Origin: a virus | Reading direction: 5' to 3' (one strand) | Length of the DNA: 64,000 nt | IMG/VR virus record: IMGVR_UViG_2912844605_000003 | In this document: one piece after another, positions 4,185-52,922 of the stretch | Position numbering within the stretch: the stretch's first letter is position 1 | How the letters are laid out: each line of letters begins with the position of its first letter | Notes under the pieces: generated by a model | The model's input: the letters and a program-made list of their open reading frames with translations, nothing else | The model's database searches: none | What the model was told of the DNA's origin: nothing | Program-made: the position numbers and the translations under genes

Positions 4185-4253
4185 GTACCACTGCCATATC
4201 GCTTTATATATCACCTTCGCTTAGCTAATATGTTCTAAGTAGGAGGTGATATT

Positions 4254-5066
4254 TTGTTTGTATCGCCAATGCTATTGCATTCAATAAAAGAGCCTTTTAA
4301 CGACGAGAACTATATCACTGAGCTCAAATTTGATGGAATCAGACTCATCCTTTCTAAATTTGATAATCAGATTAAGCTATACACTCGTCACAACAACGAA
4401 GTAACAAGCAAGTTTCCAGAACTCTTGGACTTAGATATTCCAGATGGAACAGTACTTGATGGTGAAGTTATTGTAGCTGTCCCAGGTGGTGCTCCTGACT
4501 TTGAAGCTGTAATGGAACGTTTCATGTCAAAAAAATCAGCCCTTAAGATTGTTTACTGTGTCTTTGATGTTATCTACAAAGACGGTCAGTCAATAGCAGC
4601 TAAGCCACTCACTGAGCGTAAGACAGTTCTGAACTCACTTGAACTAGATCATCCTAATGTCTTTGTTATCGAAGGAATTCAAGGTAACGGTCTTGCTTAC
4701 TTCAACCTGGCCAAAGAAAAGAATTTAGAGGGAATCGTAATCAAGAAAGCTAACTCCCCTTATGAGATCAATAAACGTTCGCATAATTGGCTTAAAGTGA
4801 TTAATTATGATTACACTGAAGTTCTCATAACCGGCTACACGAAGAACGATATTAAATTCCTTCTGTCTTATCCTGATGGAACTGCAGCTGGTTTTATGGA
4901 ATTCATGCCGAACGCGGAACGAAGTAAGTTCCACTCTATGAAACAAGTAAAGTCTGAATCTGATGAGTATGTATTTATTGAGCCTATATTATGTAAGGTT
5001 AAGCACAGATTTAAGACTAAGCACGGAAAACTCCGCATACCTTCCTTCGAATCCTGGAGAGTATAA
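4254..5066 (+). CDS. ligB: ATP-dependent DNA ligase
   Basis: 270 aa; motif I ELKFDGIR, LDGE, VFD, EGIVIK, WLKV; C-terminal LRIPSF; AGGAGG RBS. Confidence 0.95.
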   Translation: MFVSPMLLHSIKEPFNDENYITELKFDGIRLILSKFDNQIKLYTRHNNEVTSKFPELLDLDIPDGTVLDGEVIVAVPGGAPDFEAVMERFMSKKSALKIVYCVFDVIYKDGQSIAAKPLTERKTVLNSLELDHPNVFVIEGIQGNGLAYFNLAKEKNLEGIVIKKANSPYEINKRSHNWLKVINYDYTEVLITGYTKNDIKFLLSYPDGTAAGFMEFMPNAERSKFHSMKQVKSESDEYVFIEPILCKVKHRFKTKHGKLRIPSFESWRV

Positions 5067-5139
5067 TCTCTCCGTTACATAATTCCTTAGCCCAAAGTTA
5101 ATTAATCTCAATGAAAATTTAGTACATGGATCAATTAGT

Positions 5140-5470
5140 TTAATTTTCCCATTCATCAAAGCTGTAGGGGTAATCAACACTTTCAATAAAACCGATCTCC
5201 TTCGCCTTCTGACCGATTTTCATACATCCTTCATAGCTGTAAGCCCATATTTCTGTATAATCCCTCAGCTCGCCGGATTTCCCTGTTATGATGAATTTTC
5301 TGAAGCTGTTGATCAGTTGCCACATATTGCCTCCATGCGAAAAGCCGTTTGAGCTGCCATGTCCCAGTTCATACGGGTAAACATCATCTTCCGTGTAATC
5401 ATCAACAAAAACATTTTTAAATTTGAAATACGCTATCCGGTTCTTTGACTTGTAGGATAGCGTATTTCTT
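5140..5470 (-). pseudogene. Probable 5'-truncated or frameshifted gene remnant at the yoqU position; a 61-aa ORF (5140-5325) with its own GGAGG may still be expressed
   Basis: The frame of the 61-aa ORF stays open upstream (TLSYKSKNRIAYFKFKNVFVDDYTEDDVYPYELGHG...) to a TGA near 5472, with no in-frame ATG start. Confidence 0.4.
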
Positions 5471-5526
5471 CACCATTATCTGGTGGTTGTAGTCAAGTCC
5501 AAGACCACTTAATAAAATGCTATAAT

Positions 5527-6696
5527 TTATATGGACCAATGGAACATGAATGGGTACCATGTATCTGTCCCTGTATTAGGATTCCTGGTATTAATAATTT
5601 TGACTCTACCATTTGGCTGAACTTGCCAGTTACACTGGTAACCCGAACTGGTAACCTGCACCATCTGTATGTTCCGATCAGGAGCTAATTCCTTAGGAAA
5701 CTCAAGGTATTCTGTATTAAGGTTGGATACATTTCTTAGTGCTCCATTTAGCTCTACCAGATTGCCTATTCTTCGTATTCTTGGCACTGTGTCAGCGCCA
5801 TATGTCTTACACCCGTTTAACAGAGTTACGTTTAAGTAGCCAGTATCTACTTTATAGATTGGGATTTCTGTTTCTAACGCAACACCGTTAGGGGAATTGT
5901 GAACAAAAATAAAGCATTCTCCGTCAATGATCTGAGCTAAGGATAGTCTCCCTTTGTACTTGCATCCGCCCTCGTTTTCGTAGTCATAGTTAACTGCATC
6001 TGGTAACCGTCCAGGGAATTTACTATTGACAGTTTTTGCAAGACTACTTTTAGTATAGATGAAGGAATTTACTAATTGTCCTGCTGTGTTGTATACAGTG
6101 ATGGCAGGTTTTCCTTTTTGAGCACCTTGCGTTATGAAGATATAACCATTGTTCACAACAATACCCTGAGATTTTTCAGTTAATCTGCCATAGTTATCTG
6201 TCCTAATACTATTTACCAGTATAGGATTTCCTGCTTTTACACTCTCCCAAGTGTAAATGTATATATTTTTAATAGTGTCAGTCCATACATCAGATGTGAC
6301 AAAGTAATCCCCATCAACGTCAGATTTTGCTTTTCCTTTAATAGGAAAGGTGCTCCCTAAGACACCAGTTTCATAGTTGAATATAGCCGCAGATTCTTCA
6401 TTTTTGGGTCGGACGATAAAACTTAGTTGGTCGTTCTTATTATAGAAGTAAGGTAGAGATTCTGTAAAAGATCCACTATCAATTGGAAGAGTTTTACTAC
6501 TCTTAAGTTTACCATTAAGATCCCGTACATCAATACGAAGTTCTGTTCCTGTGTTTTCTTGATTGGCTACATAAATCTCTTGTCTTTCTTCATTAATTGA
6601 AACACCTTGAATCCACGTTTTCATGTCTTTCTTATATCTGACTGGGAAAGAGCAAAGAATTTCTGCACTGTTTATATAAGCTAAGGGGTCTCTCAT
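5527..6696 (-). CDS. TagC / phage receptor-binding-protein-like beta-propeller with a C-terminal tail-fibre-type domain
   Basis: 389 aa; blade-like motifs IQGVSINEERQEIYVANQ, SQGIVVNNGYIFITQG, YENEG. The C-terminus (VTLLNG...RRIGNLVELNG) resembles the YomR C-terminus in this window (ITLQNG...SKWGNLLLIRG). AGGAGG RBS. Confidence 0.6.
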   Translation of the reverse strand: MRDPLAYINSAEILCSFPVRYKKDMKTWIQGVSINEERQEIYVANQENTGTELRIDVRDLNGKLKSSKTLPIDSGSFTESLPYFYNKNDQLSFIVRPKNEESAAIFNYETGVLGSTFPIKGKAKSDVDGDYFVTSDVWTDTIKNIYIYTWESVKAGNPILVNSIRTDNYGRLTEKSQGIVVNNGYIFITQGAQKGKPAITVYNTAGQLVNSFIYTKSSLAKTVNSKFPGRLPDAVNYDYENEGGCKYKGRLSLAQIIDGECFIFVHNSPNGVALETEIPIYKVDTGYLNVTLLNGCKTYGADTVPRIRRIGNLVELNGALRNVSNLNTEYLEFPKELAPDRNIQMVQVTSSGYQCNWQVQPNGRVKIINTRNPNTGTDTWYPFMFHWSI

Positions 6697-6727
6697 TATT
6701 TCCCTCCTTTTGTTTGTGTCTAGTATA

Positions 6728-6814
6728 TCAGTAGAAAGTACGTCTGTCTGTGCTTGCGATAAGCTTTATCAAGTCATTAAAATTTATGCGTTTTATTTGC
6801 TCTTGATTTGGCAC
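6728..6814 (-). CDS. 28-aa small ORF MPNQEQIKRINFNDLIKLIASTDRRTFY
   Basis: Strong RBS AAGGAGGT 7 nt before the GTG; immediately upstream of the 389-aa gene; below the ORF track cutoff. Confidence 0.5.
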   Translation of the reverse strand: MPNQEQIKRINFNDLIKLIASTDRRTFY

Positions 6815-6979
6815 TGTGGTTACCTCCTTCCTTTAAAATAAATATTTTATTTAAAAGGAGATTTTTCTTTAAACCTTTTTAAATTTCCAAGATTCATTTC
6901 ACCTTTATTACTGCAAGCCGGTTGTCATACGCTTGCCATATAAAAGAGACTGGACATTTTTGTCTCGGAGGTGGAATAA

Positions 6980-7129
6980 ATGGAATTGATCTTAGATTAT
7001 TTAGTGAATTGGTCATTTGATAAGATAATGGACTATATCTTAATTGCAGGGTTTTACTTTGTATTCAAATCAAAATCTAAACAAAATTATCCTGATCACT
7101 TCGAAGAAAAACGCCGGCATAGAAATTAA
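6980..7129 (+). CDS. yoqT: 49-aa small membrane peptide (YoqT-like)
   Basis: GGAGGT RBS; MELILDYLVNWSFDKIMDYILIAGFYFVFKSKSKQNYPDHFEEKRRHRN; size, orientation and position match yoqT. Confidence 0.7.
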   Translation: MELILDYLVNWSFDKIMDYILIAGFYFVFKSKSKQNYPDHFEEKRRHRN

Positions 7130-7137
7130 TACTTTAT

Positions 7138-7174
7138 GATCGTTATCGATACGTGTGCTTTTTCGATAACGATC
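7138..7174. terminator. 12-bp inverted repeat between convergent genes
   Basis: GATCGTTATCGA-13 nt-TCGATAACGATC. Confidence 0.5.
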
Positions 7175-7209
7175 CATCCTTATATGTTTAGTTAAAAACT
7201 ATCTTTTAT

Positions 7210-7500
7210 TTAGATTTCATCAACTTGTCTAATAGTGTCTAACAATTCTTTCTTCTTGAAATATGTCTTTTCCAAACGATTTACTTCCTTTTGCAATTCA
7301 GTCGCAGCATCATACTTAAGGATCCATTCTCCTACTCCACAGACTTCTCTTCGTTCTTTCTCAAACGTTTTTATGTGATGGCCTTCAAACCAAACCCTTA
7401 CTCTTGTTCCGTTTTCAAATTCATTATTAAAAGCAGCTTCTTTGTTAATTCCCGCATAAATGCATTTATATTTACTGTTGTCGACTACGTATGTATTCAT
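7210..7500 (-). CDS. Hypothetical phage protein
   Basis: 96 aa; GGGAG RBS. Confidence 0.7.
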
Positions 7501-51495: not shown

Positions 51496-51864
51496 GTGGA
51501 GTTGTTGACAGAAACGACTGAAAATGTCGTAATCACGATTCCAGACAAAACTTCATTTACTTTTCACGACTCTGCAACAACCGCATCTGAAGGTGAAGAA
51601 TTTGTAGTGGGTCATTTTCGGGAACTTACTGTTAAGATCTCTGGTTCCTCTACTTCTAGGGAATTAAAATTCTTTTCTATTGATGAAAATGGTGAAAAAA
51701 CAGAGTTGGGAGCAACGAACAAAACAGACTTCCAATTAGGAACAGGTACTCTAAGTACCAATGAGAATTGGGATATTGATATCGCTGGTCTGTATAAAAT
51801 TATGGTTGAACTGATCTCAGTTAGTGGCGGAGATGTTACAGTGAAAGGAATTGCAGTTAGCTAA
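51496..51864 (+). CDS. yomS: YomS-like protein
   Basis: About 119 aa; likely TTG 51505 behind AAGGAGGTG. Confidence 0.75.
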   Translation: MELLTETTENVVITIPDKTSFTFHDSATTASEGEEFVVGHFRELTVKISGSSTSRELKFFSIDENGEKTELGATNKTDFQLGTGTLSTNENWDIDIAGLYKIMVELISVSGGDVTVKGIAVS

Positions 51865-52922
51865 TGAGTAGCAGCAAATTTGTAGGACAACTTAAACAAA
51901 ACAACATACAAATCAACAATCTTAAAGATTCCCTATCACGTACTGAAAAACATATGACTGATTATGAAAAAGAATTGTCTAATGAGATTAATTCGTTTAT
52001 GGAAAGACAAAATTTCGAGCTTAAATCGCACACTGAAGATATAAACAATCCTCACAAGGTGACTAAAACACAAATCGGCCTCGATAAAGTTTTAAATGTG
52101 GAACAAGCTTCAAAAACAGAGTTTGACTTACATGCCTCAAACATTGAAAATCCGCATAATGTCACAGCTGCTCAAATTGGACTTAGTAATGTTCTAAATG
52201 AAAAGCAAGCTACAAAAGTTGAATTTGATGATCACGTTAAAAATTTATCTAATCCCCATTCTGTAACAAAAGAGCAGATAGGATTAGGGAATGTCACTAA
52301 TGTTGAACAAGCCAGTAAAACTAATTTTGACAATCATGCGTCTGATAAAACTATTCATGTTTCAGAGGATGATCGAAACAAATGGAATACTGCCGAGGAT
52401 AATGCCAAAGGCTATACAGATGAACACGCTAGTCGAAAAGATAATCCGCACGGCGTGACAAAAGTCCAAATCGGATTAGGTAACGTTAAAGATGTTGAAC
52501 AAGCATCATTGACCGACTTTAATGCTCATAATTCTAATTCTATTCGCCACATTACCGCAGATGAACGTTCAAAATGGAATTCTAACCTTAGCTCAGAGTC
52601 ATTTAATAAAGCAGTCTGGTCTAATATTACATTACAAAATGGAGCAACCGCTGGCACCCGTACTCCTATATATTCTAAATGGGGCAACTTACTGTTAATC
52701 AGAGGACATATCGTAACATCAGCAGACATTATTTTTGGCACAATCCCAACAACTGCTGTACCAATTGGTGGCTCTGTAAATCTAGTTCCAATCAGCGGTA
52801 CTGGCGGAAGTGCAGGATTAATTATCTATGATACTGGAGAAATGAAAATAAAATATCCAACACCAACTGATTCCTCAAAAGTTGCAGGTTATTATTTGGA
52901 TATTGCTGTTCCGCTACAGTAA
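51864..52922 (+). CDS. yomR: Tail fibre-like protein with NPH repeats
   Basis: Coiled coil, ~34-aa NPHxVTxxQIGL repeats and a C-terminal beta domain. Confidence 0.8.
   Translation: MSSSKFVGQLKQNNIQINNLKDSLSRTEKHMTDYEKELSNEINSFMERQNFELKSHTEDINNPHKVTKTQIGLDKVLNVEQASKTEFDLHASNIENPHNVTAAQIGLSNVLNEKQATKVEFDDHVKNLSNPHSVTKEQIGLGNVTNVEQASKTNFDNHASDKTIHVSEDDRNKWNTAEDNAKGYTDEHASRKDNPHGVTKVQIGLGNVKDVEQASLTDFNAHNSNSIRHITADERSKWNSNLSSESFNKAVWSNITLQNGATAGTRTPIYSKWGNLLLIRGHIVTSADIIFGTIPTTAVPIGGSVNLVPISGTGGSAGLIIYDTGEMKIKYPTPTDSSKVAGYYLDIAVPLQ
52047..52580 (+). repeat. Intragenic tandem ~102-bp repeats (NPHxVTxxQIGLxNV..EQAS) in yomR
   Basis: Four NPH units plus two IH[VI]xxxxRxKWN units visible in the translation. 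Confidence 0.85.

Follow-up and report, generated by a model that had tools for sequence, protein, structure and literature searches.

Receptor-binding proteins (RBPs) are usually investigated as virion components. The RBPs of phages phi11 (Gp45), 80alpha and P68 recognise teichoic acid and belong to siphophages and podophages of Gram-positive bacteria. They are encoded in the tail module and contain an N-terminal coiled-coil stem, a five-bladed propeller platform and two tower domains at the C-terminus. In Gp45, the platform comprises residues 142-439 and follows a coiled-coil stem of 141 residues, while much of the trimer interface is located outside the stem, in the C-terminal part of the protein (PMC4901313). 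In gp15 of Listeria phage PSA and in the lactococcal proteins of phages TP901-1, p2 and bIL170, a β-barrel head comes after a short stem and neck. A cellular protein with related architecture is TagC (DinC) of Bacillus subtilis, which is encoded in the chromosomal tag locus and is among the most strongly SOS-induced proteins of this species. A role in teichoic acid metabolism was once guessed for TagC, but to our knowledge it has no recognised function. Its gene is under LexA/SOS control (PMC9135335).

Here, we analysed a stretch of viral DNA of 64,000 nucleotides (IMG/VR record IMGVR_UViG_2912844605_000003), which is called the window and represents an SPbeta-type prophage. It carries a gene for a 389-aa protein, labelled P0001, in which the ligand-recognising part of an RBP appears to be freed from its anchor. 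The explanation that we tentatively favour is that a foreign insert in the gene yoqU introduced this anchor-less RBP, and that the protein may be kept as a free glycopolymer-binding accessory rather than as a part of the virion.

Genomic location and insertion into yoqU

The ORF 5527..6696 (-), encoding 389 aa, was confirmed at the position given in the preliminary description, and its distance of about 45 kb from the tail genes is likewise correct, since the fibre gene starts at 51864. Consequently, the gene lies outside the tail/baseplate module. It is located within yoqU and adjoins ligB; the Pfam search identified the SRAP peptidase gene yoqW and the ATP-dependent ligase gene ligB on its left side. 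Both flanks are approximately 90-92% identical to SPBc2 and other Spbetavirus genomes. In the alignment with the SPBc2 locus (L001), window positions 4200-5452 match up to position 2057 and the match resumes at position 2060 with window positions 6731-7210. Therefore, a 1278-bp insert (5453..6730) is present inside yoqU, which it splits cleanly after codon 28 while leaving both halves intact. The preliminary description had suspected that the neighbouring gene was disrupted, and the PHROG match together with the SPBc2 alignment identifies this gene as yoqU. The region contains the following features:

5143..5452 (-), 3' part of yoqU, from about codon 30 to the end; matches phrog_14313 positions 78-130 with an E-value of 4e-20
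5425-5438 / 5455-5468 (no strand), perfect 14-bp inverted repeat straddling the left junction 5452/5453
5453..5526 (-), 3' untranslated end of the insert; folds as RNA into three hairpins together with adjacent yoqU sequence
5527..6696 (-), gene for the predicted 389-aa anchor-less RBP module, with a propeller (aa 1-272) and an RBP head (aa ~283-389)
6697..6730 (-), 5' terminal part of the insert, including the RBS of the 389-aa gene; sequence identical to that of L008, the second copy of the gene
6731..6814 (-), first 28 codons of yoqU; matches phrog_14313 positions 1-28 of 130, with 92% nucleotide identity to SPBc2 yoqU

The RBS of the 389-aa gene is a GGAGG at 6703-6707, 6 nt before the ATG. 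yoqU itself starts with GTG and has its own GGAGG at 6823-6827, 8 nt upstream of this codon. Its 5' remnant is terminated by a TGA at 6728-6730, a stop codon that arose at the insertion junction, while the reading frame of the 3' part (5143..5452) is open but possesses no start codon of its own before an internal Met at 5325. The 28-aa leader ORF with a strong RBS that had been proposed upstream of the gene thus exists as an ORF with an RBS, but not as a leader. A dedicated leader peptide or uORF was rejected because ORF 6731..6814 and its RBS are yoqU's own start, as indicated by its match to phrog_14313 positions 1-28 and its 92% identity to SPBc2.

The empty site in SPBc2 reads CTTGCGG/TAGAATGTACG, while the left and right junctions in the window read CTTG/TAGGATAGCG and ATCAG/TAGAAAGTACG, respectively. 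Comparison of these sequences revealed a TAG-A microhomology at both ends of the insert. In addition, one arm of the 14-bp inverted repeat belongs to yoqU, and the second arm, within the insert, repeats it in inverted orientation. Neither a transposon-type target-site duplication nor terminal inverted repeats were found at the insert ends. The inverted copy looks as if it had been made by templated synthesis (snap-back or template switch) when the DNA was joined illegitimately. Because of the TAG-A microhomology at both junctions and the inverted target copy at one of them, we infer that the 1278 bp of foreign DNA were joined into the early gene yoqU by illegitimate recombination. The second copy diverges before the 14-bp repeat; therefore, the repeat is specific to the lineage of the window.

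RNA folding of the region 5395-5530, which includes the three hairpins, yielded a minimum free energy of -39.9 kcal/mol (z = -6.3), and no canonical T-run terminator was found at the 3' end of the insert. Promoter and terminator scans near the gene gave nothing above chance level. Transcription would probably start from the yoqU promoter, with the 389-aa gene as the last gene of a small leftward unit.

Comparison of window 5100-7200 with L002 and L007 showed that SPbeta-like phages differ in the genes that they carry between ligB and yoqT. SPbeta contains only yoqU at this position, SPbetaL6 and Goe12 have yoqU plus an additional 255-aa gene, and in SPR a different 51-aa gene replaces yoqU, while in the window yoqU is split by the RBP module. 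A literature search found no paper naming yoqU together with SPbeta.

Predicted structure of the 389-aa protein

The AlphaFold2 single-chain model of the 389-aa protein, built with 20 homologs, has a mean pLDDT of 88.6, and its residues 1-272 form a five-bladed propeller. Structural matches were scored by the VIA-align Z. The propeller matched the P68 tail fibre (6IAB/6Q3G) with a Z of 21.4 and an rmsd of 2.9 Å over 239 aligned residues, the 80alpha RBP (6V8I) with a Z of 20.8 and phi11 Gp45 (5EFV, chain residues 140-426) with a Z of 20.6. The NF5 RBP (Z 17.8), glutaminyl cyclases (Z ~18) and GH43/GH32-type enzymes (Z 11-14) were also matched. The propeller that had been proposed from blade motifs is thereby borne out against the very platforms named in the preliminary description, phi11 Gp45 and P68 (Z 20.6-21.4). 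When folded alone, the C-terminal 119 residues reached a pLDDT of 82.5 and matched the head of PSA gp15 (6R5W; Z 12.7, rmsd 1.9 Å), followed by the heads of bIL170 (2FSD; Z 10.6) and of p2 and TP901-1 (Z 9-9.5; 9.2 for 2F0C). Taken together, the matches of propeller and head indicate that the protein, as modelled, corresponds to the platform and head of an RBP from a siphophage of Gram-positive bacteria.

In comparison with the RBPs of phi11, 80alpha and P68, the five-bladed propeller platform is shared (rmsd of about 3 Å, approximately 240 residues aligned). In contrast to these proteins, P0001 has no coiled-coil stem at its N-terminus and ends in one head domain instead of two tower domains, and its gene is situated in the early region rather than in the tail module. 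The C-terminal 105 residues share the β-barrel head fold with PSA gp15, TP901-1, p2 and bIL170, although sequence identity to these heads is just 11-19% and the head of P0001 comes after the propeller and not after a short stem and neck.

HMMER searches of Pfam and NCBIfam returned nothing significant for the 389-aa protein; the family PF21311 (Phage_RBD_prop) gave no match at E ≤ 1, and a PDB sequence search gave no match either. Among the PHROGs, phrog_6758 was matched with an E-value of 5.3e-58, whereby aa 3-389 aligned to profile positions 155-526 of 526, and weaker matches of the C-terminus were to "minor tail protein" families. By visual inspection of the sequence, no signal peptide was seen, in agreement with the preliminary description.

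A resemblance of the C-terminal domain to the tip of the YomR fibre had also been noted earlier. P0001 aa 283-377 match phrog_3285 positions 379-472 with an E-value of 5.7e-9, and the last 100 residues of the YomR-like fibre of the window (ORF 51864..52922) match positions 381-485 of the same profile. The direct hhalign comparison of both proteins was weak (E 0.016) and a tblastn search of the window with the 389-aa protein found no paralog, so the link to YomR is based on the common PHROG profile and the weak hhalign match. The likeness therefore holds at the profile level, over the C-terminal ~100 positions of phrog_3285.

Elsewhere in the tail region, the ORF 53401-54240 matches glycerophosphodiester phosphodiesterase as well as tail-fibre PHROGs. 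Judged by these matches, it is likely a teichoic-acid-cleaving tail protein. The part of the window around this ORF is 99.5% identical to phage SPR.

Since the propeller also resembles glutaminyl cyclases (Z 18) and GH43/GH32-type hydrolases, P0001 might be an enzyme rather than a binder, similar to the role once guessed for TagC. It would cut or modify a glycopolymer (teichoic acid, a polymer resembling a capsule, or a precursor) inside the cytoplasm or once it has been released. GH43/GH32-type enzymes likewise combine a five-bladed propeller with a subsequent β-sandwich, each blade contains invariant acidic or polar residues (Q30, E79, D136, Q177, E240/E242), and an actinobacterial homolog that is 47% identical and carries a Tat signal is found in a polysaccharide-use context. 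However, RBP platforms without enzymatic activity gave the highest structural scores, clearly set apart from the others, the C-terminal domain has the classic fold of an RBP head, and no glycoside hydrolase family was matched in Pfam or NCBIfam. We therefore consider an enzymatic activity rather unlikely, though it is the alternative that fares best, and return to the favoured explanation of a free, glycopolymer-binding RBP module.

Comparison with full-length RBPs and TagC

Residue 1 of the model aligns to residue 140 of Gp45. The 389-aa protein thus begins at the same point as the platform of Gp45 and lacks the trimeric stem or baseplate anchor; positions 1-154 of phrog_6758 are likewise absent. 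The RBP of Bacillus phage PM1, gp75, has the same two domains and shares 41% identity over aa 2-387 (E 5e-95), but possesses 131 more N-terminal residues. Its gene is positioned in the tail module, directly after the genes for the Dit-like gp73 (annotated as hypothetical) and Tal, the tail-associated endopeptidase. Anchors of the BppU_N or Mtd_N type are present in homologs that share 55-64% identity with P0001 and have lengths of 435-571 aa. An exhaustive profile search with a cut-off of E ≤ 1e-30 yielded 73 clusters, and almost every one of them is extended at the N-terminus by 80-400 residues. In the alignment of homologs, the conserved module starts exactly at Met1 of the window protein (motif MRDPLAY), and this Met is an internal residue in most of the Bacillus-type full-length relatives.

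Another homolog without a phage anchor was observed on the high-GC, 565-kb metagenome contig Ga0180222_1000006 (L009:7836-9194). This actinobacterial protein is 47% identical to P0001 and starts with a twin-arginine (Tat) signal (FGRRAFLSTAG...). Its gene adjoins those of a sugar ABC transporter (sugar uptake), a sulfatase and an FGE-sulfatase, which is a non-phage context. By its sequence, it is a putative secreted cellular version of the two-domain module.

For comparison with the host protein, TagC was taken from the nearest Bacillus genome, where it is encoded downstream of tagB (L020:439-1764, tag locus). TagC matches PF21311, described as the phage 5-bladed beta propeller receptor binding platform, with an E-value of 4e-97. 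Since this domain begins at residue 27, TagC is likewise anchor-less, and its relatives include 632-aa "phage baseplate proteins" with an extra N-terminal domain (PF27455). The pairwise comparison of P0001 with TagC was weak (E 0.06), whereas hhalign of both family profiles gave a probability of 83.5% and an E-value of 8.3e-6 over 337 columns covering both domains, with P0001 aa 24-380 aligned to TagC from residue 23. The likeness to TagC that had been proposed from the sequence thus holds at the profile level, although the pairwise alignment alone is weak. Both proteins share an anchor-less propeller followed by a C-terminal domain, a length of about 400 aa and the same structural start point. 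They differ in that TagC is chromosomal and matches PF21311 strongly, while the window gene is prophage-borne and falls outside PF21311 by HMMER. Furthermore, in contrast to the LexA/SOS-controlled TagC, the window gene has no LexA box nearby (GAAC-N4-GTTC with ≤1 mismatch, between 6697 and 7300). Host TagC/DinC therefore resembles a phage RBP that was domesticated and placed under the control of the SOS response.

The loss of precisely the stem, together with the 41% identity to the RBP of the B. subtilis phage PM1, raises another explanation. Inside the cell, P0001 might act as a poison subunit against competing phages: through contacts of its head and propeller, it would co-assemble with full-length RBPs when a PM1-type phage superinfects, and the resulting stem-poor trimers would fail to mount on the baseplate. 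In Gp45, the C-terminal part provides much of the trimer interface outside the stem (PMC4901313). This mechanism would also account for the lack of an export signal and for the location in the early region of a prophage in two contexts (see below). At 41% identity, however, co-assembly may fail, and no PADLOC match was found. We know of no record of an RBP acting as a poison subunit, and we regard this purely inferential proposal as quite improbable. The favoured role as a free glycan binder is taken up again below.

Distribution and selection

The 389-aa gene is absent from all 21 matching SPbeta-like phage records. A tblastn search of the phage collection yielded matches in phage PM1 and Arthrobacter phage Hankly only. 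No homolog was present in the nearest genome or the nearest provirus record, no relative was found in the species-representative genomes that were scanned, and the IMG/VR search returned distant actinophage-type loci only.

A second copy, which is 98% identical, was found on the metagenome contig k87-225042 (L008:1-4166). It shares the 5' junction, with a diverged yoqU-like remnant of 29 codons and the identical RBS stretch. Upstream of it lie an xre-like gene and an anti-repressor gene, while an IS3-family transposase is encoded downstream. Since this context differs from that of the window, the cassette has moved to, or from, a non-SPbeta prophage. In an exact-sequence look-up, more than 250 contigs of B. 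subtilis-group genomes were found to encode the 389-aa protein or a close variant of it, in each case annotated as hypothetical, with a protein divergence of at most about 3%. An additional anchor-less form of 401 aa is 87% identical.

Between the genes of the window and L008, which are both anchor-less, 10 nonsynonymous and 23 synonymous changes were counted. This corresponds to a dN/dS of 0.11, with a binomial p of 5e-9 against neutrality. Among 15 variants, 23 of the 389 positions vary and are evenly spread, and no hypervariable (receptor) patch was found. The anchor-less form is thus conserved under purifying selection and is not a dead fragment.

These data bear on the idea that the gene has no function and is carried along inertly, as a piece of a tail gene that was captured during break repair and has an accidental start codon. 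Its insertion does resemble a repair scar, with the junction microhomology and the inverted templated copy, another captured scrap, derived from glyA, is present in the same phage, and none of the 21 sequenced SPbeta-like phages (0/21) contains the gene. An inert fragment is nevertheless hard to reconcile with an ideal RBS, a dN/dS of 0.11 for a pair of copies in which the truncation is already present, and the spread over more than 250 contigs with so little divergence, beside a related anchor-less 401-aa form. This explanation is accordingly very doubtful, and selection for a free, functional protein is assumed in the following.

Possible function of the anchor-less RBP module

On the favoured explanation, the insert would be a complete gene with its own RBS, encoding the distal, ligand-recognising two-thirds of a siphophage RBP. 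This module would consist of a Gp45/P68-type propeller platform and a subsequent TP901-1/PSA-type head without the N-terminal stem or anchor, and the free protein would be retained by selection. The absence of an anchor and of a visible export signal, the position in the early or lysogeny-side region of prophages in two contexts and the purifying selection make a free glycan-binding accessory (moron) protein the most plausible role, rather than a part of the virion. Since no export signal is visible, the protein would build up in the cytoplasm, and any extracellular role would depend on lysis; it would reach cell walls only when cells lyse, for instance upon prophage induction.

The most likely activity would be binding of a cell-wall glycopolymer. 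Given that SPbeta adsorbs to teichoic acid (PMC8270828) and that the window encodes a tail protein of the glycerophosphodiester-phosphodiesterase type, wall teichoic acid is the obvious candidate ligand. Phages whose RBP is of the PM1-gp75 type might then find their receptor already occupied. As the closest phage relative of P0001 is the RBP of PM1, while the sequenced SPbeta-like phages and the nearest provirus record contain no homolog, competition, if it occurs, would be expected with PM1-type phages and not with SPbeta's own tail. The soluble receptor-masking or decoy protein released at lysis, as suggested in the preliminary description, would be one conceivable form of such a role.

Going one step further, an anchor-less RBP might serve B. 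subtilis prophages as a weapon or shield in competition between phages, either as a poison subunit or as a public good that is released at lysis and covers the wall receptor of sister lysogens, with TagC as a domesticated example; we put this broader proposal forward as an unlikely one. Should the protein prove to block or poison other phages, it would represent a new type of prophage-encoded exclusion.

The other role that had been suggested, a spare RBP module for host-range switching by direct use or as a recombination cassette, draws on the RBP domains and on the family relationship between the head and the tip of the YomR-like fibre of this phage, but it was rejected as highly improbable, because the protein has no stem or anchor to join a baseplate, its gene has no BLAST similarity at the DNA or protein level to any other gene of the window, flanking homology arms or invertase sites are absent, and with no homolog in SPbeta-like phages or the nearest provirus record there is nothing to recombine with.

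The free glycopolymer-binding module that we favour would place a ligand-recognising RBP part, normally bound to the virion, in the early region of a prophage, where it has spread through B. subtilis under purifying selection. The occurrence of two independent anchor-less RBP derivatives in one species, P0001 and TagC, suggests a real and so far unrecognised role for free RBP modules, and both proteins form a tractable pair to study it. Even if the protein only binds teichoic acid, it would be a ready-made cell-wall probe.

A hexamer at two sites of captured DNA

The empty yoqU site of SPBc2 contains the hexamer TAGAAT (L001 ~2058-2066; GG/TAGAATG). The extended form CTAGAAT flanks the captured glyA scrap of the window on both sides, at 35147-35153 and 35242-35248. 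TAGAAT is under-represented in the window, with 42 occurrences found compared to 75 ± 8.5 expected. Its presence at both sites could be a coincidence or could reflect a preferred break site.
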